From: a virus
Strand: one strand, 5' to 3'
Length of the DNA stretch: 64,000 nucleotides
Virus record (IMG/VR): IMGVR_UViG_3300032294_002710
Coordinates: 32,001 to 96,000 of that record
Shown here piece by piece: positions 3,613-64,000 of the stretch; the stretch's first letter is position 1; each line of letters begins with the position of its first letter. The position numbers and the translations under genes are program-made. The notes under the pieces were generated by a model. That model was not told the origin of the DNA. It was given only the letters and a program-made list of their open reading frames with translations, and searched no databases.

Positions 3613-3628
3613 AAATAATATATAAATT

Positions 3629-46470: not shown

Positions 46471-46486
46471 AGAGTATATATTAAAA

Positions 46487-46515
46487 CAAAAAACCCACTC
46501 ATTTGAGTGGGTTTT
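46487..46515 (-). terminator. Intrinsic terminator
   Basis: aaaacccactc-attt-gagtgggtttt. Confidence 0.8.
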
Positions 46516-46518
46516 GAT

Positions 46519-47037: not shown

Positions 47038-47107
47038 ATAAAGGTTTTTTATTTTAATTATATATTAAACAATTTATTTCAAATTATTGATTTTTATATA
47101 TAATAAG

Positions 47108-48289
47108 ATGAAAATCCTAAACTTTTTTGACTTTATTTTTGAAAACTTCAAGAAGATTGAAGTTCCCTTTCAATTTTGCACAGAATTTGACTATGTTATA
47201 AGAGAGATTGATAGTCCTATATCAAAAGCTTTTTTTGATCTAAGACTAAAAAACTGTGATATATCATTAATTAATATTGGTGATGAGACTGATACTGCTA
47301 CTTTTACAACTTCAACTAAGCTATCTCAACATTTTAATACAGAAAGTGAAAAGCAATTAACTACTTTAATACAGCCTTTAACCAGAAATACTGAAATATA
47401 TTCTAAGAATAGAACAACTATTAAAATAGGAAGGCTTATTCGTAAATTATTTGGTACAAAGTTTAGTGATGTTGAGATTGAGAAATTTGTAAATCAATAC
47501 AAATCAAGTTTAGATTCTAAGATTACAAATTTTGAAATTTGGGAAGGTTCTAGAATAAAAGAAGGATATATGTCTAAGAACTACACATATGATGGTGCTA
47601 GTTCAAATCCATTAATAAATTCTTGCATGAATGATGAAATTGAACTTGTCGATTTCTATAATTATGTTCCCGTAAAATTACTTGTTATGTTGAATAACGA
47701 GAGGCATATCTTTGGAAGATCTTTGATTTGGAAAACTGATAGAGGTCTTTTTATGGATAGAGTTTATTGTGCTTTTGACTCGGACTATTATAAGTTTATT
47801 GACTATGCTAAAAAGAATAATATAATTTATAAGGCTGAAAATAAAAGTGGATGTCAGACAAAATATGTAAAGGGTGATGTTACTTCTTGGTTTCCGATGA
47901 TTGTTAGTTTAAAATTTGAGGTTGAGACTTATAATCAAGAAGATTTCACAGAAGATCCTAAGGACTTTCCATATATGGATACTTTTATTTATGGCCAGAA
48001 AAATAGATTAAGTAATTATGAACCACTTGATGATAGTTATTATGTCTTGACAGATACTGATGGTGGCTTTTTGGAAGTTACTCCTGTTTATGATATAAAT
48101 GGTCAAAGAATTGAGACTGATCAAATTGAAAATTATGAATGGTCAAATACTCAAAATGGTTGGATTTATAATAAAGATGTTGTTTACGTATCTTCGGTCC
48201 AAGATTATTTATCTCTTGATTACTTAAAAGATCCTGAAAATGGTTTCACTTGGTCATCAAAAACAGGATGGATTAAAAATGGAAAATAA
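47108..48289 (+). CDS. SC(M/Q)/GRALLW family protein, paralog 2
   Basis: KIGRLIR, EIEKFVN, NSCM, GRSLIW, MDRVY, FPYMDT; ATG start at 47108 preferred. Confidence 0.65.
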   Translation: MKILNFFDFIFENFKKIEVPFQFCTEFDYVIREIDSPISKAFFDLRLKNCDISLINIGDETDTATFTTSTKLSQHFNTESEKQLTTLIQPLTRNTEIYSKNRTTIKIGRLIRKLFGTKFSDVEIEKFVNQYKSSLDSKITNFEIWEGSRIKEGYMSKNYTYDGASSNPLINSCMNDEIELVDFYNYVPVKLLVMLNNERHIFGRSLIWKTDRGLFMDRVYCAFDSDYYKFIDYAKKNNIIYKAENKSGCQTKYVKGDVTSWFPMIVSLKFEVETYNQEDFTEDPKDFPYMDTFIYGQKNRLSNYEPLDDSYYVLTDTDGGFLEVTPVYDINGQRIETDQIENYEWSNTQNGWIYNKDVVYVSSVQDYLSLDYLKDPENGFTWSSKTGWIKNGK

Positions 48290-48299
48290 TATATAACTA

Positions 48300-49142
48300 A
48301 TGAAAGTTTTAAATTTTGAAAAGTATCAATTGGCTGAAGATTTATCTAATTTTATAGCAAATCCAACTATTAATGAATCTGATAATAAAGATTCACAAAT
48401 TAATGGTATTTTAAAGAAGTTATCTCAAGATTTAAAATTTAACTACGGATTAGTTTTCACTTTCGGTGTTGGTGTTAGAGTAATGTATCCAATTGTTGAG
48501 GGATTAATAACAAATGGTAGTTTAAAGGTGGAACCCACTATGGAGAATATTGTATTAGTTAGTATCGCTGCATTAACAATTACATACTTGGAAGAGTCAA
48601 AGAATAAAGCAGGTGATGCTGAAGTACCTTGTAATTGTAAAAATAAATCTAAGGATTGTGAAAAATGTAGTGGTACCGGTATGATTAAAAGTATTGTCAC
48701 TAAACAAGATGCTAGAACAATTCTTGAAGAACTTAAATTAAGAGGAATTGGTAATGGAATTGTTAGGAAAATGGTTGAATGTTTTAAATTTTTAGGTTCA
48801 GTATTGAAGGCATTGTTCAAAAATACACCATATGTTGTAAATGGACTTATAGATATGTTAGCATATACATCAGTTTTAATACCTGCGATGAATGGAATCA
48901 GTGCAATAGTTGGTAAGTATGATCTTAACATTGATACTTTAATTGGTAACTCGGCGGCAATTGCCTTGGGTATTTCTACATTTTTAACAAAATATGGATT
49001 TGATTGGTTAGTTAAGAAATTCAAAAATAAATTTGGATTTGATACTAAAAATCTTGATGTTCCTACAGTTATTAAACCTTATGATATTGGTGACGCTGAG
49101 AGTGATAACTTAGGTGATAACAAATTAATTAAAGAACAGTGA
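48300..49142 (+). CDS. Membrane protein with a Zn-finger insert (CxC...CxxCxGxG)
   Basis: Several hydrophobic helices; CNCKNKSKDCEKCSGTG. Confidence 0.6.
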   Translation: MKVLNFEKYQLAEDLSNFIANPTINESDNKDSQINGILKKLSQDLKFNYGLVFTFGVGVRVMYPIVEGLITNGSLKVEPTMENIVLVSIAALTITYLEESKNKAGDAEVPCNCKNKSKDCEKCSGTGMIKSIVTKQDARTILEELKLRGIGNGIVRKMVECFKFLGSVLKALFKNTPYVVNGLIDMLAYTSVLIPAMNGISAIVGKYDLNIDTLIGNSAAIALGISTFLTKYGFDWLVKKFKNKFGFDTKNLDVPTVIKPYDIGDAESDNLGDNKLIKEQ

Positions 49143-51448
49143 TAAGAAAATATTCAAATTTTAGATACTTTTTTTTATTGGAATCACTTTTAAAAGTGGA
49201 TCCTGAATTTCTTAATTTATTGAAAGATACTTCCTCAAAAGATCCAATCGCTAAAATGTTATTAGGATTAATTGATCAGGATATCACTACAAATGTTAAT
49301 TACTTAAAACCATCTGATAAGAATGATGATGTTAAATTTGTTAATGATACACAAGTAAAAAGATTTTTAGATGCTGGTCAAGATCCTTTTGATAGAGCTA
49401 CAAATAGTGCTAAAATTGGTAGAACAGTTAGACAAATATTAACCGCTAATAAAATAAGTTTCACAGACCAGCAAATTGAAAAGTTTGTAAACACTTATAA
49501 AAATTCTTGGGATAGAAAATATAAAAAAACAGGTGAAGGTCTTCACTTAATATCAGGTGAGGAAATTAGACATTGGTATCTTGAAAGTACATATGTTCCA
49601 GGTGGTGGGACTCTCAATAACTCTTGTATGAGATATCAAGAAACTCAGGAATTTTTAAATATTTATACTGAGAATCCAGATACTTGTCAATTACTAATTC
49701 TCGTTGATGATAAGAATAGATTATTAGGTAGAGCACTACTTTGGAAGTTAATAGATGGTACTGGTAAGTCACCTTACTTTTTGGACAGAATCTATACAAG
49801 ATTTGATAGTGACGCTGAAAAATTTGCTGATTGGTTTAGAGATTTTATAAAGGCAAAAGATGACAATTTTAGCGCACATTTTCTTGGTAGAACACACGGC
49901 TGTAGAGTTCAATTGAAAAAATGGAAATTTAAACTTTATCCATATATGGATACCTTTGCTATATTAGACTACAATGACGGTATTTTACTTACATATGATG
50001 GTGAGGATAGAAAAAGGATTCAATATCATATTCAAAATACTGGTGGTTATCCAAATGTACCAGGTCATAATTGGTCAGAAAAACATCAAATGTGGATTCT
50101 TTCTAGTGAGGCTATTTGGATTGGTGATTTAGATGATTATGTCCTAAAATCAGATTGTGTTAAGAATTATAAAGATGAATTTATTTATAAAGAATTTGCG
50201 GTTTATTCTGAATTCTACAAATCCTATATTAATAAGATTACTGCTGTTGAAGAAGAAGGATTTGGATTAGTTGATAGTGATGATGTTTGCTATGTTTATG
50301 ATAGTATTGAGAATGGAAAACCCGCTAAAAAGAAAAAGTATTTGTACTCACTTTTAGGAGATTCTGAGTATGGGAAAGTAGAAAGTGGATGGATTGATTA
50401 TTGGATAAATAAAAAATATTTAACTTATGACTGCTATTCAAATGAGTTTTTAATTTTAAAAGATGATATGTTTGAAGAGTATGAGAAATTATATCCTATT
50501 AAAAAGCAAGATTTTGATAAAATTGATGAAGAAAGTAAATGGTTTAAGGGTGTTGATCTATACTATGACTCATTTGGTATAAGTGATCTTTATACTAGAA
50601 CACCATTAGTTCTGCATTTCTATGACTCTACTAAAGAAGAAAGAAGATATCTTTTACCAGAATCATTTATGAATGCCTTTGAATTTAAAAAAGTGGATAA
50701 TTTTTTGGTGATAAGAAAATCTACCTTTTTAACAGGATTTAAGCAAATGTGTTATGACTACACTTTAGATTTTTTAAAGAAGATAGGAGTGAGTAGTCCG
50801 GAAATGTTAGATAAGTTAAAAGATATCAATGATGAGTTAACTAGTAGGTCTAGTGATTATCGAACTTTAAATAAAAATTATATGGAAATGAAAAAGTGTG
50901 GCAGTTACAAGGAGCTTTTTAACTCTAAGATTGCTGAACTATTTAATAGAAATAAAATTTTAGAAAATTTAGGAAGTGAAGAATCTATAAATAAATTTAT
51001 TACATTTTTAAAAGAAAATCGACACAGTTTTTCATTTTACACTAACTATGAGGGGTCTGATTCGCGAGTACGAGATGAACTAATTGAGGTCAATTATATA
51101 GATGAGGATATTAGTCAAAAAATTTCTAAGTTCATTGAAACATTTAAAAAACAAATAATTTTCTCTGCATATTGGTATGTACTTATAAATGATATGGATT
51201 ATGTTCAAGAATTATTGAGTAGATATTGTGAACAGAATAAATTGCAACAATCTCCTACGTTAGTTAAGTATTATGTTAGGTATGATGATGTTGGTGCAAA
51301 TTTCGCGGAAAGTGTCGCTTCTGCTAGAAGTGATTTTGGTGATATGTATGATTACAGAAAGATTTGTACTGAACAAAATATAAGCAGGAATACTTGGACT
51401 AAAAATAGCGAAGATGTTTATAATGATTTTCTATCGAGGTTAAAATAA
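49139..51448 (+). CDS. SC(M/Q)/GRALLW family protein, paralog 3, with long C-terminal extension
   Basis: KIGRTVR, QIEKFVN, NSCMRY, GRALLW, LDRIY, YPYMDT. Confidence 0.65.
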   Translation: MIRKYSNFRYFFLLESLLKVDPEFLNLLKDTSSKDPIAKMLLGLIDQDITTNVNYLKPSDKNDDVKFVNDTQVKRFLDAGQDPFDRATNSAKIGRTVRQILTANKISFTDQQIEKFVNTYKNSWDRKYKKTGEGLHLISGEEIRHWYLESTYVPGGGTLNNSCMRYQETQEFLNIYTENPDTCQLLILVDDKNRLLGRALLWKLIDGTGKSPYFLDRIYTRFDSDAEKFADWFRDFIKAKDDNFSAHFLGRTHGCRVQLKKWKFKLYPYMDTFAILDYNDGILLTYDGEDRKRIQYHIQNTGGYPNVPGHNWSEKHQMWILSSEAIWIGDLDDYVLKSDCVKNYKDEFIYKEFAVYSEFYKSYINKITAVEEEGFGLVDSDDVCYVYDSIENGKPAKKKKYLYSLLGDSEYGKVESGWIDYWINKKYLTYDCYSNEFLILKDDMFEEYEKLYPIKKQDFDKIDEESKWFKGVDLYYDSFGISDLYTRTPLVLHFYDSTKEERRYLLPESFMNAFEFKKVDNFLVIRKSTFLTGFKQMCYDYTLDFLKKIGVSSPEMLDKLKDINDELTSRSSDYRTLNKNYMEMKKCGSYKELFNSKIAELFNRNKILENLGSEESINKFITFLKENRHSFSFYTNYEGSDSRVRDELIEVNYIDEDISQKISKFIETFKKQIIFSAYWYVLINDMDYVQELLSRYCEQNKLQQSPTLVKYYVRYDDVGANFAESVASARSDFGDMYDYRKICTEQNISRNTWTKNSEDVYNDFLSRLK

Positions 51449-51508
51449 GAAAAAAGTAGCAAACAATAAAATATATTTTCACTATAAAATCAAAATATAT
51501 TAAACTGT

Positions 51509-52837
51509 ATGACCTCGTCATTAGAAAAAGTTTTTTTTAACTACATATTAAAGAATAAGAAGTATTTTGAAATTATAAGACCGTATTTTTTTAGGAATTC
51601 TGAAATTCAATTTGTATTCGGTATAATCCGTGAATACATGACTAAAAATTCAGATGCTCAAATACCAACACCGAGACAAATTCTCGATATGGTTACTCTC
51701 GAAGATAAAGAAGGAATAATAACAAAAGAAATTTTAAAGTCTCTATTAACAGATAATCTAAAAGATTATGATGAAAAGAATTTCATTGAACCTAAGTTTA
51801 ACGCCTGGATTCTATCAAATAGAATTAAAGCAGGTACTGTAGATATTATCGATGAAACAAGAAATTTTGATAATATATCTGATTTTGAATCTGCTATAGA
51901 AAGAGCAAATAAAATAAGAGCAATCGTTGATGAGATGTCATCAACAAATTTTGTTGATGATGATGATTTAGGATCTGATTTTGATGAACCTGAACTTCAC
52001 GTACAAGATAGTTCAAGGTTTAAAGTTAAGTCCGGGTTCGAAACTATTGATCATATTTTAGGTGGTGGATGGGATATTGGTACACTAAATTGTGTAATGG
52101 CTGAGACTAATAATGGTAAATCACTATGGATGCAAAACTTTGCAGTAAAAACTGCTGATGCTGGTGCTAATGTCTTATACATCACTCTTGAAATGAGTGA
52201 GAGAAAAGTTCTTAAAAGATTGGGTTCAATGCGTTTAAGAATTCCAATTAATGATTATGATACAGTCAGTAAAGATACTGAATTAATAAGAAAAAAGATT
52301 AAGTCTCTCGGTTCGATGAAAGAAGGTGGTGATTTATTTTCTAATAAAGTTGGTAAAATTTATACAAAGTTCTGGGCCGCTGGAACTGCTACTATAAATG
52401 AATTTGATAATTATGTTCAAAAAATTAATCAAAAAAAGGGAATTAAATTTGACATGATTATTGTTGATTATATCACACTTGTTGCACCGGTTAAAGGTGC
52501 TGGTGATAATCTCTATACAAAAGGTAAACACTTGGCTGAGGGTCTAAGAGCTTTAGGTGCTAAATATAAATGTCCAATTATTACGGGAGTACAGGTGGCA
52601 AAGGATGCATGGAATGCATCTGATATAACTTTAGAAAGTGTGCCAGAATCTAAAGCAATTGCTGAAACTGCGGACACTTTTTTTGCTATAATAAGAACTG
52701 AGGAAATGAAACGATTAAATCTCTACAGATTTAAGTTATTAAAGCAAAGAGATGGAGACTTTCTAAAGAGTCAAATAAAACTGACTCTCAACCCTACATA
52801 CTTGACATTGGAAAATGATCAATTTGTAGATTCTTAA
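51509..52837 (+). CDS. gp41: Replicative DnaB-like helicase (gp41)
   Basis: AETNNGKS, YITLEMSE, IIVDYI, AEGLRALG, ESKAIAETAD, KQRDG. Confidence 0.9.
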   Translation: MTSSLEKVFFNYILKNKKYFEIIRPYFFRNSEIQFVFGIIREYMTKNSDAQIPTPRQILDMVTLEDKEGIITKEILKSLLTDNLKDYDEKNFIEPKFNAWILSNRIKAGTVDIIDETRNFDNISDFESAIERANKIRAIVDEMSSTNFVDDDDLGSDFDEPELHVQDSSRFKVKSGFETIDHILGGGWDIGTLNCVMAETNNGKSLWMQNFAVKTADAGANVLYITLEMSERKVLKRLGSMRLRIPINDYDTVSKDTELIRKKIKSLGSMKEGGDLFSNKVGKIYTKFWAAGTATINEFDNYVQKINQKKGIKFDMIIVDYITLVAPVKGAGDNLYTKGKHLAEGLRALGAKYKCPIITGVQVAKDAWNASDITLESVPESKAIAETADTFFAIIRTEEMKRLNLYRFKLLKQRDGDFLKSQIKLTLNPTYLTLENDQFVDS

Positions 52838-52852
52838 AAAATAATTATAAAG

Positions 52853-53788
52853 ATGCCAAAGAAGAAAAAATATGAAGAAGAAGAAGATTTTGAAAACTTT
52901 GATGAGTTGGAAAATGAATCTAGCTTTGATGAAGTTGTAGATGATGATAAGTCTGATGATCTTGATAGCTCAGAAGTAGAGGACATTTTAGGTGATGATG
53001 ACGGTGACTTAGATATAGTAATTGAGATATCTGAAGATCCTATTGATGAAGAAGCACCTAAAGATGAAGATGTTGTTTTATCAAAGCACAAGGTACAAGG
53101 CAAGCACTCCTTAAAGTATGACTCTATTTTTAAGGGTAAAAAAGAGGAAAAGCCAGATGAAGATGGTGGAGATCAAACAGCTATGTATTTCAATGAAAAA
53201 TTTGAAGTAGATAAGTCATCATTTTTCTATGTTGAGTCTTATGATAACGAGTATTATATTAGACAAAAAAATGTTAAAGAGAAGGTTTATAATGTTCTTC
53301 TTCAACATACTAATATAAATTTTCTTAATAATAGAAGAAAACCATCAAAATCGGATTTTAATCACTACTATTATTTACTCAAGGCGAATTTAGACCAAGA
53401 TGGTTTTACTAATATTGAATTATTTAATGAATTATCTGTTTATTTTTCTGATAACCTATTCAACATGTTTAAGCTATTGGATAATAAGTGGAGAAATTTA
53501 ATAATTATTGAATTACAAGATCACATAGGCAAAAATACAAATGCTAAAGATATAACTAATAGAAATATTTATGTTGGTACCGAGTTAGAGTTTTTACAAT
53601 TAGACGCACTTGGAAACCAGAAGACATTTACTGGCGTTGTACTTGAAGCATACTATTCCGAATCTGTTTTTAAAATAGATTCTTATGAGAATGTGTATGA
53701 AGTTCATATATCTTCAATAACAAGAATATTAAATAATTCAAAATTTAAGTATAATTTAAATAAATTAAATAATATTGATTTTTTATAA
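52853..53788 (+). CDS. Hypothetical protein with highly acidic N-terminus
   Basis: 311-aa ORF. Confidence 0.6.
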   Translation: MPKKKKYEEEEDFENFDELENESSFDEVVDDDKSDDLDSSEVEDILGDDDGDLDIVIEISEDPIDEEAPKDEDVVLSKHKVQGKHSLKYDSIFKGKKEEKPDEDGGDQTAMYFNEKFEVDKSSFFYVESYDNEYYIRQKNVKEKVYNVLLQHTNINFLNNRRKPSKSDFNHYYYLLKANLDQDGFTNIELFNELSVYFSDNLFNMFKLLDNKWRNLIIIELQDHIGKNTNAKDITNRNIYVGTELEFLQLDALGNQKTFTGVVLEAYYSESVFKIDSYENVYEVHISSITRILNNSKFKYNLNKLNNIDFL

Positions 53789-53862
53789 TTTTCCAAAAAA
53801 GGTATTTTAATATGAAAAGTCATAACAATATATAAATTTCTAAAAAATAAAAACATACTAAT

Positions 53863-56181
53863 ATGCAAGAAATGATATCGAAAGATGTTAAAAGATCCAC
53901 TCGTAGCAATGAGTTGAGTGTCAAGAAGAGAAATGGTCAAACTGAAGTTTTTGAAGCTGAAAAAATTAATAAAGTATTAATTTGGGCAACATCAGGAATA
54001 AGTGGTGTTTCCGCATCTGATGTGGCGATGAATTCACATCTACAATTCTATCCAGGAATAAAGACATCTGAAATACACAAAGTCTTGATTCAATCAGCAG
54101 TTGATTTGATTTCAGACAAAAATCCAAACTATCAATATGTTGCTTCAAATCTATTGAATTACTTACTTCGTAAAGAAGTTTTTGAAACAAAGAAGGAACT
54201 ACCTTCTCTATTTGAATGTATTAATAGAAATATTAAAGTGGATTTATATGACTCTTTGATACTTGATAAGTACACTCAAGAAGAAATTGCTAAGTGTGAT
54301 TCGTATATCAAACATGAAAGAGATTATGATTTGACATATGCTGGTCTTCAACAATTGATTGATAAATATCTTGTTAAAGATAGAAGCACCGGTAAATCTT
54401 ATGAGACTCCACAGTTTTGTTTTATGATGATTGCTATGACTGTTTTTGCAGATTATGATAAATCTACAAGAATGGATTTTGTAAAAGAATTATATGATAT
54501 GATTTCTGAACATAAGATTTCTTTACCAACACCAATTATGGCTGGTATTAGAACACCAAATCGTCAGTTTTCAAGTTGTACACTAATCGAAGTTGGTGAT
54601 TCATTAGATTCTATATTTCATGGTAATGTTGCAATTGGTCAGTATGTTGCTAAAAGAGCTGGTATTGGAATTAATGCTGGTCAAATTAGAGCACTTGGCT
54701 CAAAGGTTCGTAATGGTGAAGTAGTACACACTGGGGTTATTCCATTTTTTAAGATGTTTCAATCAACTTTACACTCTTGTTCCCAAGGTGGTATTCGCAA
54801 AGGGTCGGCAACTCTTTATTTTCCTTGGTGGCATAAAGAAATCGAGGATGTTCTTGTATTGAAAAACAATAAAGGCACTGACGATAATCGTGTAAGACAC
54901 ATGGACTATGGAATTCAATTTGAGAAAACTTTTTACAGTCGATTTATTTCAAATGGTGATATTGCACTTTTTTCACCTTCTGATGTTCCTGGACTTTATG
55001 ATGTATTTGGTCTCCCAGAATTTGAAGAGCTATATTTAAAATATGAGGCAGATAAAAAAATCCCTAAGACGATTATTAAAGCGAGAGATTTAATGAACTC
55101 TTTTGCACAAGAAAGAATCGGAACTGGTCGTATGTATGTTATGAACATAGATAACGCTAATACTAATTCACCTTTTATTGAAAGATTGAAAATGTCTAAC
55201 TTGTGTGTTGAAATTGTTTTACCAACAGCACCAGTTGAAAATATCTATGATATCGATAATAAGAAAGAAACCGAACAATACTCAGATGCTGAGATTGCAC
55301 TCTGTACATTAGCTGCCTTTAACTTGGGTAATATTAAATCCTGGGCAGAACTTCATAGAGTTGCTGAGTATATTGTTAGAATTCTTGAATATGTAATCGA
55401 GAATCAAGATTATCCAATTAATGCGGCTAAGAAAATGTTAAAGCGTCGATCAGTTGGAGTCGGTGTAACAAACTTTGCATATTGGTTAGCGAAACAAGGA
55501 GTTAAATATTCTGATAAAGAAGCACTTTTCTATGTTGATGAGTTGTTTGAAAACATTCAGTATTCGTTATTGAAAGCTTCAAATAAATTGGCACAAGAAC
55601 TTGGAAAATGTGAGTGGTATGATAAGACTACATATTCTCAAGGTGTTTTACCAATTGATCGTTATAATAAAAATGTTGATGAGTTAGTTAAGAGAGATTA
55701 CTCTTGTGATTGGGACACATTAAGAAAGGACATTGAAGAATTTGGTTTAAGAAATTCTGTATTAACAGCTATTATGCCAGCAGAATCTTCAGCAGTTGTT
55801 CAAAATGCTACTAATGGAATTGAACCAATTCGTTCACTTGTTATCACTAAGAAGTCTAAATCTGGACTTGTTAAACAAGTAGCACCTGAATGTATTAAGT
55901 TGAAGAATAAGTATGAGATGGCATTTGAAATGCCGGATAATCGTGGATATACTAATATCTGTGCTATTATTCAAAAGTGGATCGATCAATCTATATCAGC
56001 TAATCATTACTATCAATATTCATCAGATGGTATTTCAATCGGTGGTGTTATTAAAGATGTGTTATACGCTTATAAGTACGGATTGAAAACATTGTATTAC
56101 GCTAATACAGATGATAAAAAGACAGACGATCTTTCTCAAATGGGTATGGATGGTTGTGAATCAGGAGCTTGTTCGATATGA
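53863..56181 (+). CDS. nrdA: Ribonucleotide reductase class Ia, alpha subunit (with ATP cone)
   Basis: VKKRNG, PTPIMAG, QFSSC, SQGGIRKG, SNLCVEI, C-terminal CESGACSI. Confidence 0.97.
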   Translation: MQEMISKDVKRSTRSNELSVKKRNGQTEVFEAEKINKVLIWATSGISGVSASDVAMNSHLQFYPGIKTSEIHKVLIQSAVDLISDKNPNYQYVASNLLNYLLRKEVFETKKELPSLFECINRNIKVDLYDSLILDKYTQEEIAKCDSYIKHERDYDLTYAGLQQLIDKYLVKDRSTGKSYETPQFCFMMIAMTVFADYDKSTRMDFVKELYDMISEHKISLPTPIMAGIRTPNRQFSSCTLIEVGDSLDSIFHGNVAIGQYVAKRAGIGINAGQIRALGSKVRNGEVVHTGVIPFFKMFQSTLHSCSQGGIRKGSATLYFPWWHKEIEDVLVLKNNKGTDDNRVRHMDYGIQFEKTFYSRFISNGDIALFSPSDVPGLYDVFGLPEFEELYLKYEADKKIPKTIIKARDLMNSFAQERIGTGRMYVMNIDNANTNSPFIERLKMSNLCVEIVLPTAPVENIYDIDNKKETEQYSDAEIALCTLAAFNLGNIKSWAELHRVAEYIVRILEYVIENQDYPINAAKKMLKRRSVGVGVTNFAYWLAKQGVKYSDKEALFYVDELFENIQYSLLKASNKLAQELGKCEWYDKTTYSQGVLPIDRYNKNVDELVKRDYSCDWDTLRKDIEEFGLRNSVLTAIMPAESSAVVQNATNGIEPIRSLVITKKSKSGLVKQVAPECIKLKNKYEMAFEMPDNRGYTNICAIIQKWIDQSISANHYYQYSSDGISIGGVIKDVLYAYKYGLKTLYYANTDDKKTDDLSQMGMDGCESGACSI

Positions 56182-56462
56182 TAAACTGGATTAAAAACTT
56201 ATTTAAAAGGAAAGAGGAACCAATTGATCCTCTTTCTCCAAACAATTGGTCAGTTAGTAGAACTAATGGTAGAGTTATTTATAAAATACCAGTTGGTGAC
56301 CTGAATCCGAAATATGCTCAAAAAACATTAAAAGAATTAATGAATAAATATAACGCCCAGATGCCGATTTCAACCAATTACTGGTTTCCAAGTCCTGATA
56401 TGACTAAAGCTGAAAAGATTGAAAGAATTTTGAATAAAATTCAACCTAAAGAGGAAAATTAA
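56178..56462 (+). CDS. Mini-protein resembling an internal segment of the portal protein
   Basis: RVIYKIPVGDLNPKYAQKTLKELMNKY...YWFP resembles portal QKFTIPVKGLSRQKAEEQIGQLINDY...IWFP; ATG at 56178 overlaps the nrdA stop. Confidence 0.6.
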   Translation: MINWIKNLFKRKEEPIDPLSPNNWSVSRTNGRVIYKIPVGDLNPKYAQKTLKELMNKYNAQMPISTNYWFPSPDMTKAEKIERILNKIQPKEEN

Positions 56463-56489
56463 TATAATAAAGACAATAAAATTAAAAAT

Positions 56490-57566
56490 ATGAAATCAAT
56501 AATTAACTTAAATACAGATTTAGATTTTACAAAAGCACCATTATTCTTTGGTGGCGATCTATCTTTACAAAGATATGATAAATTCAGATATGAGAAGATT
56601 TTCAATATGTTCAAGCAACATATCTCTTATTTCTGGAGGCCTGAAGAAATTAACTTATCAAAAGATAAAGCAGATTTTCAGTCATTAACTGAACATGAGA
56701 AGTTTATCTTTACTAAAAATTTAGGATATCAAATTCTATTGGACTCTGTTCAAAGTCGTGGTATTTCTAATCTTTTAGAAGATTGCTCTAACCAAGAAGT
56801 AGAATTGTTTGCAAAGACTTGGGAATTCTTTGAGACTATTCACTCTTACTCTTATACTTATATTATTAAGAATATCTACTCAAATCCAAGTGAAGTATTT
56901 GATAATATTTTAAAAGATGAAGAGATTGTAAAAAGAACGACTTCTGTTACACATTACTATGATGAGTTGATTAATTCTATTCCAGATGAATCAGAACACG
57001 ATAAGAAGAAGAAATTATATTTAACCCTTGTGTCTATTAATATTCTTGAAGGTATTAGATTTTATGTTTCTTTTGCTTGTTCATACTGTTTTGCACAGAA
57101 CAAGAAGATGGAAGGTAACGCTAAGATTATCTCATTAATTAATCGTGATGAAAACTTACACATGGGATTCACTTCTTTCTTATTGAAGACTTTAAAAGAA
57201 GAGTGGTCAGAAGGGTTCCAACAAATCGCAACTGAGTGTGAACCTCTTGTTATTAAAATGTATGAGGATGCTGCTAAAGAAGAATTAGAGTGGGCTGAGT
57301 ATTTATTTAAAGATGGTTCAATGATTGGATTGAATGCTGAGATTTTAACTCAATATATGAAGTGGTTAACAAATAATCGTATGAAGATTATTGGTTTAGA
57401 GCCTCTTTTTGATAAAGTTCAAAATCCAATTTCTTGGATTAATAACTGGACATCAGGTTCTACATCTGTTCAAAATGCTCCACAGGAAACAGAAATTGAA
57501 ACTTATGTAGTTGGTGCTTATAAGCAAGACATTGATGATGAAAGTTATGATGAATTTAGTTTTTAA
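56490..57566 (+). CDS. nrdB: Ribonucleotide reductase class Ia, beta subunit
   Basis: FWRPEE, LDSVQ, ETIHSYSY, LEGIRFYVSF, RDENLH, APQETE. Confidence 0.97.
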   Translation: MKSIINLNTDLDFTKAPLFFGGDLSLQRYDKFRYEKIFNMFKQHISYFWRPEEINLSKDKADFQSLTEHEKFIFTKNLGYQILLDSVQSRGISNLLEDCSNQEVELFAKTWEFFETIHSYSYTYIIKNIYSNPSEVFDNILKDEEIVKRTTSVTHYYDELINSIPDESEHDKKKKLYLTLVSINILEGIRFYVSFACSYCFAQNKKMEGNAKIISLINRDENLHMGFTSFLLKTLKEEWSEGFQQIATECEPLVIKMYEDAAKEELEWAEYLFKDGSMIGLNAEILTQYMKWLTNNRMKIIGLEPLFDKVQNPISWINNWTSGSTSVQNAPQETEIETYVVGAYKQDIDDESYDEFSF

Positions 57567-57916
57567 TGAATAAGCAAGAATTAATTAAATATTACAACTA
57601 TCTCAATACTAATAAAACAGAACTTTTCAATTCTTTTCATAAATTAAAAAATGATAGAGAATTGAAATTTTCTGTTTTATTAGAGTCCTTTTACTGTGGT
57701 AAAATTGGTGATCTTTCAGATGAATACCTTAATTTGGTCTCAAATATTGAGGATGTTGAGTGTCAGATCAATAGTAAGATAGAAAAAATTGATTTAAACT
57801 CAGATGATTTTAATCTTCTTAAAGAACAGCTGGAAGATTATGGTGAGTTACTTGATGAATCTATCGCTTACTGTGAGTATTTAAAATCTGAAGTCGAAAA
57901 AATAATAAATACATAA
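57566..57916 (+). CDS. Hypothetical protein
   Basis: 116-aa ORF coupled to nrdB. Confidence 0.55.
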   Translation: MNKQELIKYYNYLNTNKTELFNSFHKLKNDRELKFSVLLESFYCGKIGDLSDEYLNLVSNIEDVECQINSKIEKIDLNSDDFNLLKEQLEDYGELLDESIAYCEYLKSEVEKIINT

Positions 57917-59427
57917 TGGAAAAAAAGTTATTACCTTATTTAGTAGTCATTTCCGCTCTTTCAGTATCTTTATCAGCGGCATTCTACTCTGTTACTGGTC
58001 TTGGTAAAATGTTTTCAGGTGCCAGTATGCAGGTTATGATTATGATGGCATCTTTAGAGATAGCCAAGTTAGTATTGGCCTCTTTACTTTATCAATATTG
58101 GAGTAAATTAAATAGAGCATTAAAGACATATTACTTTGTAGCACTTTTCGTGTTGATGTCTATTACATCTGCCGGTATATACGGATATCTTTCATCAGCC
58201 TATTCTGATACTTTAAATAAAGTTGAAAATATTGATAAACAAGTTAAAGTTCTTGAAACTAAGAGAGAAATGTTTCAAACTCAGTTAAATGATGCTAGAT
58301 CTGAAAAAGAACGATTAAATGAAAATATTGCAGAGTTAACAAAAGGCGTATCTAATAACTTTGTGCAGTCTAAGGATAGAAATGGTAATATTATTACTAC
58401 TACTTCGGCCGCTAATAGAAAAGTGTATGAAGAACAATTAAAATCATCTCAGAAAAGACGAGATGATATTCTTCTGGTAGAAACAGCATTAAATGATTCC
58501 ATAACTAAAATCGATTTGAAAAAATTAGATTTGGAAACAAATACTGATATAGCCGGTGAGATAGGTCCTTTGAAGTATATTGCTAAGTTAACTGGTAAAT
58601 CAATGGATGAAGTTATAAACTGGTTTATAATTGCCTTGATGTTAGTATTCGATCCTTTAGCTGTTTCACTTGTTGTTGGTGCCAATGTTATTTTTAGAGA
58701 TAAGAATAAAGAAAAAGAGAAATTAAAACTAAGTGAAGAGATTGATCAAAAGGTTATAGAGTTTGAGAAGAGAAAGGAAGAAATAAAAGAACTAGAAAGT
58801 GATTTTGAGTCAAAGTTATCAGATTTATCTAAGAGGGAAGAGGATATTAATGAGTTGGAAAAAGTTAGATTGGTAGAATATCAGAGTAAGTTTGATTCTT
58901 TAAAGTCTGAATTTGATAATAAAAATCAACAATTAGACGATAGAAGTATTGAATTAGATGAATTGGAAAAACAAATGAGCTCTAATTATGAGAACATTTT
59001 TAAAGATTTAAAATTAAAACAAGATTCATTTGATTCTTATGTTAAAGAAGAAAAGGATAAAATTAAATCTTTAAATAAATCCATATCTGAAAAAGAATCG
59101 GAATTAAAAGAGTTAGAAAAATCTATAGACGATAGAGTAAACAAAGAGATTGAAAATGCAAAATTAAAAATGCAAGAAAAGATTAAGGAGATTAATCTTG
59201 AAAAGCAAAAAGTTACCGAGATGAAAAAACAGATCTCAAAAGATAAAAAAGAATTTGAGGTTGAAAAGGCTAAATTAGAAAAAATGAAAAGTGATGTCAA
59301 TGAGTCTATTCAGGAACTAATATCATTAGATCAAGAGATAAAATCTTGGGAAGATGCACATTGGCAAATGAAGAGAACCAAGGGGTATAATGGACCACCA
59401 CCTCCGCCACCTTCTGCTATTGTGTAA
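57916..59427 (+). CDS. Membrane-anchored coiled-coil protein
   Basis: Three N-terminal TM helices, GPLKYIA...VFDPLA TM segment, long coiled coil. Confidence 0.7.
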   Translation: MEKKLLPYLVVISALSVSLSAAFYSVTGLGKMFSGASMQVMIMMASLEIAKLVLASLLYQYWSKLNRALKTYYFVALFVLMSITSAGIYGYLSSAYSDTLNKVENIDKQVKVLETKREMFQTQLNDARSEKERLNENIAELTKGVSNNFVQSKDRNGNIITTTSAANRKVYEEQLKSSQKRRDDILLVETALNDSITKIDLKKLDLETNTDIAGEIGPLKYIAKLTGKSMDEVINWFIIALMLVFDPLAVSLVVGANVIFRDKNKEKEKLKLSEEIDQKVIEFEKRKEEIKELESDFESKLSDLSKREEDINELEKVRLVEYQSKFDSLKSEFDNKNQQLDDRSIELDELEKQMSSNYENIFKDLKLKQDSFDSYVKEEKDKIKSLNKSISEKESELKELEKSIDDRVNKEIENAKLKMQEKIKEINLEKQKVTEMKKQISKDKKEFEVEKAKLEKMKSDVNESIQELISLDQEIKSWEDAHWQMKRTKGYNGPPPPPPSAIV

Positions 59428-59565
59428 AAAATCCACACTTAAAAAAATTCAAATTTTTGACATCATATATAATAACATCTGAATAATTAAAAATTTTAAA
59501 AAATTTTAAACATCAATTTAAACTTTTTAATTTTTAGTTATAAAAGATAAACAATCAAAAATAAT

Positions 59566-59633
59566 CCAGTAGTGATTTTGAGGGTTACTTCGTATGGTTA
59601 ATGAAAAAAACACTCTTGAAAAGTTATCTCTGG
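59566..59633 (+). ncRNA. Y-RNA-like element 1 (short)
   Basis: Closing stems ccag/ctgg and ttttgagggt/actcttgaaa; GTTACTTCG at 59584 shared with element 2; upstream of the Ro60 gene. Confidence 0.5.
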
Positions 59634-59657
59634 TCAATTATATATTGAATGTTAATA

Positions 59658-59918
59658 GCAAACATAGCGATAGGTTGAGTTACTTCGAAATACAATTCAA
59701 TTTAACACAGATCGACTGAGAGCTAATCCAAGCAATCAGGTTTATAGTGAAACAATAAGATATAGACAAAAAAGGATAGAATAGTTCACTTAATGGACTC
59801 AAGAATTTACTACTTCTTGTAACTAAAGGGTAGGATAAGATGTAAATCCTAAAGAACATCGGTCCCAGACCTCGAGATGAGGTCCGGACGACACCTCAGT
59901 CTAGATTTCCTTGTTTGC
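59658..59918 (+). ncRNA. Y-RNA-like element 2 (long)
   Basis: Closing stems gcaaaca/tgtttgc and taggttgag/ctcagtcta; GTTACTTCG at 59679; internal hairpin gacctc-gagat-gaggtc. Confidence 0.6.
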
Positions 59919-59935
59919 GACATTTATATATCAAT

Positions 59936-59972
59936 GACCAGATTTACCAAAAGTAAATCTGGTCTTTTTTTT
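59936..59972 (+). terminator. Intrinsic terminator immediately upstream of the Ro60 gene
   Basis: gaccagatttac-caaaa-gtaaatctggtc followed by T8. Confidence 0.88.
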
Positions 59973-59993
59973 GAACAAAATTAAAATTAATAT

Positions 59994-61442
59994 ATGGCAA
60001 AGTTTAACACAACAGTACCAAAACAAAAAACACTAACTACTAATTTAGCTGGTGGACAGGCTTATCAACAATCAAGTGAGTTGGAATTGGTTTCAATCCT
60101 TTTAACTTCATTTGTTAGTGACCAATTTTATCGTCAATCTGGTGATACTTTAGAAAGAGTTAAAACTCTTTTAGATAAAGTTAATCCTAAATTTGCGGCT
60201 AAGACTGCAATTTTTGCTCGTGATAAGTTTGGAATGAGAAGTATTACACACGCTTTAGCTGGTGAGCTAACCTCAAAACTTGGTGGTCATGAGTGGTCAA
60301 AGGACTTCTATGATAAAGTTGTTGTTCGTGTTGATGATATGACTGAAATTATGTCTTACTATCTTGAGAATAAAACAGATAAGTCTAAACCAAAGTTTCC
60401 AAATGCTTTGAAGAAAGGATTTGCATCAGCTTTTGATAAATTTGATAACTATCAAATTGCTAAGTATAAGAATGAAAATAAAGAAGTAAAACTTGTTGAT
60501 ATTGTGAATTTGGTTCACCCAGTTCCTACTACTTCAAATAAGGATGCTCTTTCAAAACTTGTTGCTGGTAATCTGAAGTCTACAGATACTTGGGAATCTA
60601 AACTTTCTAAGGCTGGTCAAGAAGCATCTAATGATGAAGAATTGACACAATTGAAGTCTGATGCTTGGGGAGAACTTCTTACTACAAGAAAAATTGGATA
60701 CTTTGCACTTCTTAGAAACCTAAGAAATATTATTAATCAAGCTCCACAATTTGTTGGACTTGCTTGTGACCTATTGGTTGATGAAAAAATGATTAAGTCA
60801 AGTCGTGTTCTTCCATTCAGATTTGCAACTGCTTATGAAGAGATTTCTAAATTAGGATCTTCTTCTGATGTTAGAAAGGTTATGACTGCATTACACCAGG
60901 CTTTGGACATTTCATCTGTAAATATTCCTAAGTTCGATGGTGAGACATTAGTAGTACTTGATGTATCAGGATCTATGAGTGGTAAACCATCTGAGATAGC
61001 TTCTCTTTTTGGAGCTATGTTGGCTAAGGCTAATAACTGTGATGTTATGACATTTGCTACAAGTGCTAGTTATAAGTCTTATAACCCAATGGACTCAATA
61101 CTTACTATTAGAAATGGATTCCGCTTCTCTGGTGGTGGTACGAACTTTAAGGATATATTCTTAAAGGCTAATAAGAAATATGACCGTGTTATTATCTTAT
61201 CAGATATGCAAGGTTGGATGGGTTATACAACACCAGCTTCTGAATTTAATCTTTATAAGAAGAAATTCAACTGTAATCCTTATGTTTACTCTTGGGATTT
61301 GGCTGGACTTGGTACAATGCAACTTCCAGAAAGTAATGTATTTGCATTAGCTGGATTTAGTGATAAGGTATTTGATATTATGAAGTGGCTTGAAACAGAT
61401 AGAAATACACTTTATAAAATGATAAATGATATAGAAATCTAA
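59994..61442 (+). CDS. rsr: Ro60/TROVE-domain RNA-binding protein with vWA domain
   Basis: TNLAGGQAY, FARDKFGMRS, TWE, ALLRNLRN, SRVLPFRF, MIDAS DVSGSM, GGGT, LSDMQ. Confidence 0.93.
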   Translation: MAKFNTTVPKQKTLTTNLAGGQAYQQSSELELVSILLTSFVSDQFYRQSGDTLERVKTLLDKVNPKFAAKTAIFARDKFGMRSITHALAGELTSKLGGHEWSKDFYDKVVVRVDDMTEIMSYYLENKTDKSKPKFPNALKKGFASAFDKFDNYQIAKYKNENKEVKLVDIVNLVHPVPTTSNKDALSKLVAGNLKSTDTWESKLSKAGQEASNDEELTQLKSDAWGELLTTRKIGYFALLRNLRNIINQAPQFVGLACDLLVDEKMIKSSRVLPFRFATAYEEISKLGSSSDVRKVMTALHQALDISSVNIPKFDGETLVVLDVSGSMSGKPSEIASLFGAMLAKANNCDVMTFATSASYKSYNPMDSILTIRNGFRFSGGGTNFKDIFLKANKKYDRVIILSDMQGWMGYTTPASEFNLYKKKFNCNPYVYSWDLAGLGTMQLPESNVFALAGFSDKVFDIMKWLETDRNTLYKMINDIEI

Positions 61443-61443
61443 T

Positions 61444-61471
61444 AAAAAAACCCTCATTTGAGGGTTTTTTT
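61444..61471. terminator. Bidirectional intrinsic terminator
   Basis: aaaaaaaccctc-attt-gagggttttttt. Confidence 0.85.
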
Positions 61472-62219
61472 ATTTTCCTAATATTTCATTACAATAGCCA
61501 TCTTCATAAGCAGATATTGCATCTGATAGTTCTTGTTTATTATAACTTAGTCTACCATCACTATAAGTAGCTACTACTATTATTTCATCATCAGTTACGA
61601 ATCCGATAACTGTAGTATCATCGATATTTTGAGTATCTATTAAGATTTTTGCTTCTACAACTCCATAACCTTCAAGTTTTTTAATAACATCTTCTACTGC
61701 CTTTCTAGTCGGATTATCTTTTTTATTAAATTCTTCTTTTGCTAATCTATAATCATCAGTTGATATCTCTTGCGTTACCTGTATCGTTTGTGATATTTCT
61801 CTAAAATCTTTAGAATTATTTCCAGCTCCCCAGAATGGTACTTGAGTAATACTATTGAAGTTTATCTGAATATCTTCCGCATTTTTAAATCTGTCAAGAC
61901 AAATATTAAATTGTGTTATAAAATTTGTTTGATCTTCTAGAAATTTTAAGTAAGATGATGTTGATATTTTGTGTTTTTCAAAGTTATAAGGATTTTTAAT
62001 ATTTTTTAATATTTGAATGTTGTAATATAATTTAATTCCACCTTTTATCTCATTAATAAAATGACATTCGCTTTTAAATTCTGATCCTTCATCTAATAAC
62101 TCCAAGAAATAGTCTTTAATTACCTCATCCGGTATTTTATGTTTATTCTTAACCTCCTCACATTCCTCACTATCTGAGAAATTTAGAGCTTCAAAAAATT
62201 TATGAAATTTCTTAATCAT
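61470..62219 (-). CDS. Hypothetical protein with IKKFHKFFEA N-terminus
   Basis: 249-aa ORF. Confidence 0.6.
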   Translation of the reverse strand: MIKKFHKFFEALNFSDSEECEEVKNKHKIPDEVIKDYFLELLDEGSEFKSECHFINEIKGGIKLYYNIQILKNIKNPYNFEKHKISTSSYLKFLEDQTNFITQFNICLDRFKNAEDIQINFNSITQVPFWGAGNNSKDFREISQTIQVTQEISTDDYRLAKEEFNKKDNPTRKAVEDVIKKLEGYGVVEAKILIDTQNIDDTTVIGFVTDDEIIVVATYSDGRLSYNKQELSDAISAYEDGYCNEILGK

Positions 62220-63049
62220 TTAAATTTTCTGTTTTTAATAATCATTTTAGTGTGTGTTGAATGATTTAGTTCAACATTGAAGTCTTTCTTAACTTGTTGC
62301 TTTAGGAATGGTAATAGGAAATCTTCTTCATAAACAATCTTATATTCAGATGGTATTTTAGATTTTACCGTTTCTAAAGATACTGGAAGATAGTTCTCAT
62401 TAACCTCTCTATCCCAGTTATCTGTAAACCTATATTTCATCAAGTAGTGTACAAATGTTCTATAATTATCACTAATAGTTCCCCATTTTTTTTCAAATGA
62501 GTCTAAATAAAATTTATCAGATTTGGATCTGACTTTTCTAACATCATCTTTGAATTGACTAATCTCTTGTCTGTCTATTTCTAAAGATGGGATCATATCT
62601 CTAATTGTGATATATTTAAAATCACCACCAAAGACCTGTTCGTTCCAAAATTTAGAAATAACATTTGGTCTTGAATATGAGTATACCTCATGAATTACAG
62701 AGCTTAAATTTAACAAAGGATTTTTAAATCCAGTTGTTAGTCTAACCGCTTCGTTCCAATTATTAGTGAATAGTCCTTTTTTGCCTAATCTTGACTTGGC
62801 TTTGGATAACATTGTGTCATCTAAATCATATCCTACTAATTTAACACCAGGATTTATTTTTGATAACTCTTCTAAAAATGTTCCATCTGCACATCCAAAG
62901 TCGACAATTACATCAAAGTTCAACATCTCAGTGAAGAATAATTTATCCCTCATCGAGTAATTCATTCCATCGATGTATGATTGTAAATTTGATATTGGTT
63001 TTTCACCAACTAACTCTTCTAAAAATAACTTCCAATTGAGTATATTCAT
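62216..63049 (-). CDS. Class I SAM-dependent methyltransferase
   Basis: IVDFGCADG, VGYD, LSSVIHEVYSY. Confidence 0.8.
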   Translation of the reverse strand: MNILNWKLFLEELVGEKPISNLQSYIDGMNYSMRDKLFFTEMLNFDVIVDFGCADGTFLEELSKINPGVKLVGYDLDDTMLSKAKSRLGKKGLFTNNWNEAVRLTTGFKNPLLNLSSVIHEVYSYSRPNVISKFWNEQVFGGDFKYITIRDMIPSLEIDRQEISQFKDDVRKVRSKSDKFYLDSFEKKWGTISDNYRTFVHYLMKYRFTDNWDREVNENYLPVSLETVKSKIPSEYKIVYEEDFLLPFLKQQVKKDFNVELNHSTHTKMIIKNRKFK

Positions 63050-63068
63050 AATATTATATATTATGAAA

Positions 63069-63839
63069 TTATTTCCAAATAGTGCCTAGATCTATTTTAG
63101 CAGTTACATCTATTATTTGTGAATCCTTTCTAAGTGAATATTTACCGATGATTGAGAGCCTTTTGATAATTTTTCTAATTTTATTTTTATCGGAATCTTC
63201 CATATCGTGATTGAAAATTTGAATTAGATTTTCAATTTCATCAAATGTTAAATATGATTTATGTCCTAAAAAATATAAAAAATCATAAGAGTAGTTATTA
63301 TAAACTTCAGATCCTGATTTATTAGACATACTAATCAAAAATTGAGTAAGTGAGTTTTCTACACCGATAGATGGTACTGAATATTTATATCCATCAAAAT
63401 TAAATTCACGACTTTTTTCATCATATTTTTCAATGATATCTTCATCTAATTTACAATAATTAAATGTCGATGATTCAAATTTAATTTGTTCTTCTTTACC
63501 AATTGTGTCATTGAAAAAGTTTAATGTGACTGGTTTATTGTTAGTAAACTTAACAATTTCTAAAAACAGATATACAACATCTATGCTTTTAATGTCGTTG
63601 TAAGAATATCCATTAGATAATATAACATTTTTTTCAACAATTTTTTTAAGTCTTGTTACTACAATTCCTAAATCTTCTTTATCGTATTTGTGTTCATATT
63701 CTATTATATCTTCTAAATCAGCTTTTTTAATATAAACTTCGAAATCACTCTTGTAGAAAAACCCCTGAGATGGTAATTGAAAAGTTTCTATTTTTTTCTG
63801 AATATTTAATATTCCTTTTATTATGTTAAATAGGCTCAT
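63069..63839 (-). CDS. Baseplate hub subunit, gp26-like
   Basis: LPSQGFFY near the N-terminus and D..YLFLEI motif. Confidence 0.6.
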   Translation of the reverse strand: MSLFNIIKGILNIQKKIETFQLPSQGFFYKSDFEVYIKKADLEDIIEYEHKYDKEDLGIVVTRLKKIVEKNVILSNGYSYNDIKSIDVVYLFLEIVKFTNNKPVTLNFFNDTIGKEEQIKFESSTFNYCKLDEDIIEKYDEKSREFNFDGYKYSVPSIGVENSLTQFLISMSNKSGSEVYNNYSYDFLYFLGHKSYLTFDEIENLIQIFNHDMEDSDKNKIRKIIKRLSIIGKYSLRKDSQIIDVTAKIDLGTIWK

Positions 63840-63849
63840 GTTTTTAATT

Positions 63850-64000
63850 TTAATTTTCTTCTAGAAATAAATAAATAGTGTCACAAAAATCTTCAATTTT
63901 TACCTCATCTGATAAGTTATTTGGGTGAAGCATGTGAATTTTTATTAAATCTTTTTTAATATCGTATTTAATATTTATTATATAATGTTCTCCTCTGTAA
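63850..64000 (-). CDS. 3' end of a gene running off the window
   Basis: Open frame ...YRGEHYIINIKYD...FLEEN* ending at TAA 63850-63852. Confidence 0.55.
   Translation of the reverse strand, partial: YRGEHYIINIKYDIKKDLIKIHMLHPNNLSDEVKIEDFCDTIYLFLEEN

Follow-up and report, generated by a model that had tools for sequence, protein, structure and literature searches.

Mutually exclusive helices connect two Y-like RNA modules with a terminator upstream of a phage ro60 gene: a candidate attenuator conserved among relatives

This work deals with the region upstream of ro60 in a 64,000 nt stretch of virus DNA (IMG/VR record IMGVR_UViG_3300032294_002710, positions 32,001 to 96,000), hereafter referred to as the window and numbered from its first letter. 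RNA of this region is predicted to form three mutually exclusive helices that correspond to a terminator, an antiterminator and an anti-antiterminator, and folding, conservation and covariation together indicate that this anatomy is real and under selection. An earlier note on this DNA had proposed a terminator/antiterminator switch linking two Y-like RNAs to ro60 expression. Its structural part holds, since the three helices are kept and covary in about 65 related loci, while an effect on readthrough into ro60 is what we infer from this arrangement. The alternative pairing is very probably a selected feature, as judged from its location in the relatives, the co-evolution of its strands, the counts of paired positions and the pattern of change. 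The spacer of 566 nt between the preceding open reading frame (ORF), which stops at 59427, and ro60 holds no noteworthy ORF and would be the gene for an RNA of about 420 nt, composed of two Y-like modules and the terminator.

Four short segments, here termed P, A, B and C, provide the strands of the helices (Table 1). P:A closes module 1 and would act as anti-antiterminator, B:C would be the terminator, and A:B, lengthened by AU-rich linkers, would form an antiterminator stem of about 21 bp, which encloses module 2 and hides the outer 7–8 nt of the terminator 5′ arm. The earlier note had placed a strong terminator about 20 nt ahead of the ro60 ATG, and indeed stem and T8 end 21 nt before this ATG. 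As in intrinsic terminators, a GC-containing hairpin is directly followed by a U tract; the stem comprises 12 bp (59936–59947 with 59953–59964; 5 GC, loop of 5), and an energy value of −17.4 kcal/mol (z = −6.0) was calculated for the hairpin alone. The perfect complementarity that had been claimed between the cores of A and B, overlapping the terminator 5′ arm, was correct in all letters and coordinates. The imperfect extension of this pairing into the stem of module 2 and the alternative closing of module 1 by CTGG with the CCAG at 59566 were likewise seen in the predicted folds.

Table 1. Positions of the modules, pairing segments and neighbouring features in the window.
Feature	Position	Strand	Description
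Motif AAACTTTT-N-ATAAAA	59520–59545	+	about 20 nt 5′ of module 1; conserved in the alignment of relatives; candidate promoter
Module 1 (E1), read as Y-like	59566–59633	+	closing helix P:A, GUAG / UU-N-CUC loop, covarying stem, invariant GUUACUUCG at 59584–59592
Segment P, CCAG	59566–59569	+	5′ strand of module 1 closing helix; proposed anti-antiterminator partner of A
Segment A, core TCTGGTCA (59629–59636) with AU-rich linker	59629–59654	+	pairs with P through CUGG (59630–59633), or with B and its linker
Module 2 (E2, about 261 nt), read as Y-like	59658–59918	+	UAGCGA...GUUACUUCG (59679–59687), same plan as E1
Linker and segment B, core TGACCAGA (59935–59942)	59919–59942	+	3′ strand of the long A:B helix; core also terminator 5′ arm
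Intrinsic terminator	59936–59972	+	stem 59936–59964 and U8 59965–59972; kept in relatives
Segment C, core TCTGGTC	59958–59964	+	terminator 3′ arm
ro60 (TROVE and vWA domains, 482 aa)	59994–61442	+	Pfam PF05731, E = 6.9e-16; vWA_Ro60 weak
15-bp hairpin between A and T runs, just 3′ of ro60	61441–61474	not assigned	overlaps stop codons of ro60 (+) and of a convergent gene (61470–62219, −); likely two-way terminator

Within the 354 nt preceding the terminator 5′ arm, the strongest duplex with this arm was formed by 59628–59637 (−13.1 kcal/mol). Taken by itself, the 8-nt core match is only modestly unusual in the window, as 19 of 1000 dinucleotide shuffles equalled it. With the linkers included, 59919–59942 pairs with 59628–59654 over 21 bp (−20.9 kcal/mol), a value reached by none of 1000 shuffles. 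Two other terminators of the window, each compared with its own upstream 355 nt, gave only −4.0 and −4.1 kcal/mol, and TCTGGTC, the core of C, is not enriched in the window (6 matches versus 3.8 expected).

Pair probabilities of the three helices were determined by length-stepped folding of the window RNA with a growing 3′ end. P:A had a probability of 1.0 for 3′ ends up to 59936, at which point A:B had reached 0.06 and B:C was not yet made. For 3′ ends at 59942–59957, P:A fell to 0 and A:B rose to 0.94–0.97, B:C still not being made, and from 59966 on P:A was back at 1.0, with A:B at 0 and B:C at 1.0. This order, P:A, then A:B, then B:C together with P:A, is in agreement with the proposed switch. 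In the growing RNA P:A would form first, A would leave P for B as soon as B emerges, and with the appearance of C, B would join C and A would return to P. In a fold of 59556–59952 the A:B stem ran on without a break into the linker helices and the module 2 closing helix. For 64 distinct loci, the structure of minimum free energy (MFE) of the nascent RNA pairs B with A in 56 cases, and that of the full-length RNA contains B:C in 62.

The relatives were collected by a scan for Ro60 proteins in IMG/VR, which gave 23 loci, and by a metagenome scan, from which the best 80 of 119 relatives were used; loci with less than 450 nt upstream or with a truncated match were never taken in. This resulted in 90 usable upstream regions (74 of them unique, labelled with L-numbers), which according to the run labels originate mostly from freshwater samples. 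Nearly all of the 74 regions have two modules and a hairpin/U-tract terminator 24–56 nt ahead of the ATG. In 69 of them we searched, without bias, up to 390 nt upstream of the terminator 5′ arm for its best partner, leaving out L023 (no terminator), L045, L070 and L091 (no module motif) and L077 (fewer than two modules in 720 nt). This partner was the 3′ end of the preceding module in 63/69 loci, and in L017 and L090, which the offset rule missed, it was on inspection also the CTCTGGTC word. No more than 10 of 200 shuffles matched the A:B duplex in 56/69 loci. L102 and L103 were considered as independent support and set aside as ambiguous: their A and C share UAUCCCU, but all modules of their lineage have this word as 3′ motif, and B finds its best partner at another place. 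Cognate A:B duplexes of 16 lineage representatives had a mean energy of −13.6 kcal/mol versus −10.1 kcal/mol for non-cognate combinations, a difference reached in 0 of 10,000 permutations (p ~1e-4).

An alignment of 61 sequences, from which L022, L102 and L103 were excluded as too divergent, was used to follow individual base pairs. A:B was 86.7% paired with both-sided changes in 3 of 8 pairs, and B:C was 93.4% paired with both-sided changes in 6 of 8 pairs; sliding the partners by 1–3 columns left only 23–46% paired. The pair between the C of GGUC in A and the G of GACC in B is replaced by U-A in six sequences, with segment C changing alike. Consequently altered triplets of segments were found as GGUU/AACC/GGUU in L014, L068 and the L031 group and as GGCC/GGCC/GGCC in L093 and L094, in place of GGUC/GACC/GGUC. 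P and A form CCAG/CUGG, CCG/CGG, ACUG/CAGU, CAAG/CUUG, CAGG/CCUG or UCAG/CUGA among the relatives. In the CCG:CGG lineages P:A has changed and B:C stayed CCAG:CUGG, A:B being retained through GGUCAUUAU:AUAAUGACC. Judging from these patterns A is a chimera, the 5′ half of which tracks P and the 3′ half B; a strand that alternates between two partners should behave in this way. The G-U wobbles in all helices are consistent with transcription of the + strand.

Both modules in front of the terminator follow one plan, with a closing helix, an internal loop, a stem and invariant motifs. The internal loop is conserved as (G/A)UAG(Y)GA on the 5′ side and UU-N-CU(C/U) on the 3′ side, the stem covaries freely between lineages, and the invariant motifs are (G/A)(U/A)UACUUCG (5′ side) and ACAC (3′ side). 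The closing helix of module 2 (GCAAACA at 59658–59664 with UGUUUGC at 59912–59918) was 99.1% paired in the 61 sequences and showed both-sided changes in 6 of 7 pairs. Its interior of about 230 nt is variable; conserved blocks such as GUGAAAAAGUCCG and CUUAGGCUAAAUU were observed within it.

Y RNAs are encoded near the Ro60 gene on the same strand, and their Ro60-binding motif is given as GNCGAA(N0-1)G or CGAA (PMC4201824). The modules (59566–59918) immediately precede ro60 and share its strand, and they have the long stem built from distant 5′ and 3′ strands together with an internal loop, closing helices and inner stems covarying in both modules. UACUUCG, the putative Ro60 motif, is invariant in both; module 2 reads CUUCGAA and contains CGAA, the leading G of GNCGAA being U here. 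Thermus phage phiLo has two Yrl RNAs ahead of its ro60; they bind the Ro60 of the phage, and each base of CGAA matters (PMC12135203). No tRNA-like domain with T and D arms, such as Chen et al. (PMC4201824) describe for YrlA, was found in the modules of the window (no ARAGORN match, no Rfam match), and among the relatives such arms occur within modules only in the distant L022, L023 and L104. We read the modules as Y-like RNAs because of their plan, the invariant UCG(AA) that resembles the Ro60-binding motif, and the T and D arms of these relatives, with the caveat that the modules of the window have neither an Rfam match nor a tRNA-like domain. By analogy, binding of Ro60 to the modules is plausible.

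RNA libraries contain the Y-like region, and both modules occur there on a single piece. Single contigs from three studies cover 59558–59916, 59605–59934 and 59576–59911 with 97–98% identity and span module 1, A and module 2, although such contigs cannot show ends, strand or level. None of the listed contigs from four metatranscriptome runs bridges the terminator or covers 59935–60007, an uncovered stretch that proves nothing. Contig depth was 8–34 over the Y-like region versus 2–6 over ro60; this is a poor measure, the ro60 pieces matching with 92–97% and the others with 97–98% identity, and the ratio was not used as evidence. In contigs of relatives, 59702 is joined to 59767 or 59825, skipping 64 or 122 nt. 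These skips match the length variation of the module 2 interior between loci and therefore look like strain differences, not splicing.

Two further Y-like modules with the UAG..GA..UACUUCG plan were observed in the same phage about 36 kb past the end of the window (~132,500–132,940 of the virus fragment; L107:1495–1925), inside an array of 17 tRNA genes. One of them (L107:1847–1922) has a T arm and was assigned to tRNA-Leu(taa) by ARAGORN, and some “tRNAs” of Ro60-encoding phages may really be Y-like RNAs. The modules in the array have different closing helices and lack the terminator relay, so that the relay belongs to the locus upstream of ro60 and not to the module as such.

In the mechanism that we propose, the attenuator would set the fraction of Y-like RNA transcription that continues into ro60. 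We consider it an even chance that the relay tunes readthrough in this way. Whatever holds P:A shut would deny A to B and leave the terminator unopposed, and termination would increase. Next to P:A lie the GUAG / UU-N-CUC loop, which is conserved, and the UACUUCG motif, together a putative effector site; in module 2, too, the putative Ro60 motif is placed beside the closing helix. Synthesis of module 1 ends more than 300 nt ahead of the terminator and that of module 2 only about 20–50 nt ahead of it, so that a protein binding during transcription would have time only on module 1. The best candidate for the effector would be Ro60 bound to the already complete module 1: free Ro60 would lower its own synthesis while Y-like RNA is still made, and Ro60 output would be coupled to the supply of unbound Y-like RNA by negative feedback. 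This choice of effector, and the sign of its action, we put forward tentatively.

Several observations weigh against these proposals. With regard to the pairing itself, the A:B duplex was no better than 10 of 200 shuffles in 13/69 loci, and the cores of A, B and C are nearly invariant, which leaves most A:B columns unable to covary. The number of further pair types seen for A:B was reached by 22 of 500 shuffles, and 34 of 60 sequences lack the eighth A:B pair (59636:59935). With regard to switching, the terminator state is more stable by about 11 kcal/mol (median of 64 loci), and the inner terminator stem UUUAC:GUAAA is left uncovered by A and provides a toehold for C. Because of this bias and this toehold, A may be displaced too fast to matter, which would make termination constitutive or at least the default. 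With regard to module 1, its fold is weak by thermodynamics alone (z = −1.35) and not singled out, and it reads CUUCGUA in the window, with CGUA where the motif has CGAA. With regard to ro60 as the regulated gene, TAAAAT at 59982–59987, 7 nt ahead of the ATG, is −10-like and could serve a leaderless start. An ORF is located between terminator and ro60 in L014 and L077 (small), and extra RNA elements are found there in L017, L051 and L060, showing that the relay is not tied to the ro60 start. None of three other phage loci (Thermus phage phiLo, Vibrio phage VB_VaC_SRILMA and a crAss-like Bacteroides phage) has a terminator within 60 nt upstream of ro60, so that the arrangement is specific to a clade.

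The long A:B helix could alternatively be a maturation stalk. It would then be the processing or terminal stem of module 2, or the mature basal stem of Y-like RNA 2 after trimming of the C arm and U tail, and the overlap with the terminator would serve 3′-end formation and release instead of ro60 control. It could act in the manner of the leader-trailer stems around rRNAs, which are cut by RNase III. With about 21 bp, interrupted by a 3x3 loop and one bulge, the helix has the flanking duplex of around 20 bp typical of an RNase III-type stalk and encloses a complete module. YrlA and YrlB upstream of rsr in M. smegmatis are processed from one precursor (PMC4201824), and the contigs of the three RNA-library studies stop at 59911–59934, ahead of the terminator hairpin, which is a weak hint only. 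However, B:C is favoured by about 11 kcal/mol in terminated transcripts, and a stalk would need prior removal of C. It would also leave unexplained why the overlap between A and the closing helix of module 1 is kept in every lineage. We regard a stalk function as possible, though rather unlikely.

The strong preference for the terminator and the toehold for displacing A would also fit a relay that folds the RNA and regulates nothing. A:B would transiently join the ends of the 261-nt module 2 during folding, the terminator would always win, A would be freed to close module 1, and expression of ro60 would depend on constant leakage or on a promoter of its own. Persistence of the relay where an ORF or other elements separate terminator and ro60, and the −10-like hexamer before the ATG, point in the same direction. 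On the other hand, known attenuators are defined by just such successive pairing of the type 1:2, 2:3 and 3:4, most loci have the terminator directly before ro60 (24–56 nt), and no promoter motif is conserved in the gap; we hold this explanation to be unlikely.

If the relay does regulate, the sign could be opposite to that of the negative feedback favoured here: Ro60 would recognise the A:B helix, stabilise the antiterminator and promote its own synthesis. Xenopus Ro60 mainly contacts a 5′ strand motif, GGUCCGA (PMC4201824), which the CUGGUC of the 5′ strand in A resembles, and some lineages have GGUCGA or GGUCCA. The A core, however, varies among lineages with similar Ro60 (CAGUUAU, CCUGUU, CGGCCG), whereas UACUUCG is invariant in both modules, and only some 30 nt separate the emergence of the 3′ strand of A:B from the U tract, so that a protein would hardly have time to bind. 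Promotion of its own synthesis by Ro60 appears quite improbable in view of this.

It is barely credible that A:B is an automatic and unused by-product of a terminator stem that is a shrunken copy of the module 1 closing helix, or that one protein keeps like it: the terminator loop and 3′ arm (AAAAGUAAAUCUGGUC) do resemble the module 1 3′ strand (AAAAGUUAUCUCUGGUC), B resembles P without UAGUG in the window, and all modules of L102 and L103 have UAUCCCU as 3′ motif, but A:B is still complementary in several lineages in which P:A and B:C have diverged, the UC(A) and linkers of A pair with the B side only and not with P, cognate duplexes surpass non-cognate ones, the differing closing helix of module 2 demonstrates that cross-pairing can be avoided, and the chimeric nature of A argues against mere look-alike helices.

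The earlier note had seen no obvious promoter between terminator and ro60. This stands as far as a sigma-70-like site is concerned, since none was found on the + strand of 59300–60200, and has to be restricted with regard to the TAAAAT mentioned above. Matches of sigma-70 type were not enriched (2 versus 4.0 expected in 59300–60200; 106 versus 111.6 expected in 45000–64000), so that in this AT-rich DNA the scan can neither locate nor exclude promoters. No promoter motif was conserved across the relatives in the 21–60 nt gap between terminator and ro60. A Shine-Dalgarno sequence was absent at 9/9 gene starts examined (53863–63839), where all leaders proved A/T-rich (aaaattaaaaat-ATG), pointing to a host independent of Shine-Dalgarno pairing; as the phage genes generally lack this sequence, the bare ro60 leader is uninformative. 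The final 170 nt before the ATG of L060 contain a tRNA-like piece with a GGTTCGAATCC T arm, and structured, GC-richer elements follow the terminator in L017 (final 125 nt before the ATG) and L051.

Upstream of module 1, AAACTTTT-N-ATAAAA is a candidate promoter of the Y-like transcript. It has a single match in the 64-kb window and was rejected here as a general phage promoter word for this reason. In the region corresponding to 59436–59545 the relatives share a hairpin (AATCCACC...GGTGGAT), which has decayed in the window, followed by ATATATA and by AAACTTTT-N-ATAAAAG. Hairpin and motif may represent the end of the upstream operon and the promoter of the Y-like RNA, respectively.

The virus fragment from which the window derives has 134,852 bp, with a completeness of about 24% according to CheckV, and the window is AT-rich (GC about 29%). 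The nearest match in the phage collection, and the only similar record there, was an uncultured phage of 634,780 bp with 73% DNA identity across ro60 and its upstream region; Ro60 homologues are present in 95 phage records. The gene ro60 is the final one in a long co-directional cluster that includes ribonucleotide reductase genes, and the hairpin just 3′ of it (Table 1) would mark the end of the unit. ARAGORN detected no tRNA or tmRNA in the window. No Rfam family reached the gathering score in the window or in 14 relatives, and for 59380–60050 only chance-level miRNA/small RNA (sRNA) matches were obtained at E up to 10. An aptamer of a known riboswitch class was thus not found. In L015, L016, L021 (match 2501–4630), L070, L072 and L084 the Ro60 match extends over about 2130 nt versus 1449 nt, with no single ORF by a simple frame test, which suggests an insertion of about 680 nt within ro60 (intron, intein or homing element).

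To our knowledge, little is known about how the amount of Ro60 is matched to that of Y RNAs in cells or phages. If the proposed mechanism is true, one promoter would deliver Y RNA and Ro60 in a self-correcting ratio, Ro60 reading its partner RNA during transcription. This would be the first autoregulatory circuit described for the Ro60-Y RNA particle, and a clade of huge freshwater phages would conserve an attenuator in which the functional non-coding RNA itself serves as leader. For phage-borne Ro60 systems, an action on RNA decay or defence in the host has been suggested (PMC12135203, PMC11482910). A working switch would add a regulatory layer to these systems and extend protein-mediated attenuation to a leader that is a stable functional RNA. 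The design is compact, with four short segments and more than 60 natural variants as controls. Should the conserved relay not be regulatory, it would still be a clean natural case of programmed sequential RNA folding.

Attenuators such as that of trp follow the 1:2 / 2:3 / 3:4 plan, and in the Bacillus pyr leaders attenuation is mediated by the protein PyrR. As in PyrR/pyr, three overlapping helices are predicted here, together with a proposed protein-stabilised anti-antiterminator that favours termination before the regulated gene. In contrast to both PyrR/pyr and trp, a distance of about 300 nt separates the two antiterminator strands, and an entire structured RNA module lies between them. 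Moreover, the place of a short mRNA leader would be taken by a gene for a stable non-coding RNA, neither translation nor nucleotide sensing is involved, and the effector is only proposed. In ribosomal-protein leaders, the protein binds an rRNA mimic in the leader of its own mRNA, and some of these leaders act through terminators. Similarly, a copy of the RNA that Ro60 naturally binds would lie ahead of ro60 and be sensed by the protein, balancing protein and RNA. The sensor proposed here from sequence would, unlike a mimic, be the true partner RNA, transcribed from the same promoter.

That ro60 genes of bacteria and phages can be preceded by Y-like RNAs is known already (PMC4201824; PMC12135203). 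By titles and abstracts, we found no description in the literature of a terminator/antiterminator tied to Y RNAs or to Ro60/Rsr; relatives of the locus may stand in the supplementary phage list of PMC4201824. Like YrlA/YrlB, Yrn1/Yrn2 of D. radiodurans and Yrl1/Yrl2 of Thermus phage phiLo, the modules described here are located upstream of ro60 on the same strand and combine a stem from distant strands with a ...UCG(AA) motif (PMC4201824; PMC12135203). They differ from characterised Y RNAs, for which 80–130 nt are given (PMC4201824), by the length of module 2 (about 261 nt), the lack of an Rfam match and, in the window, the lack of a tRNA-like domain. What sets this locus apart from phiLo and the two other phage loci examined is the presence of the terminator relay.

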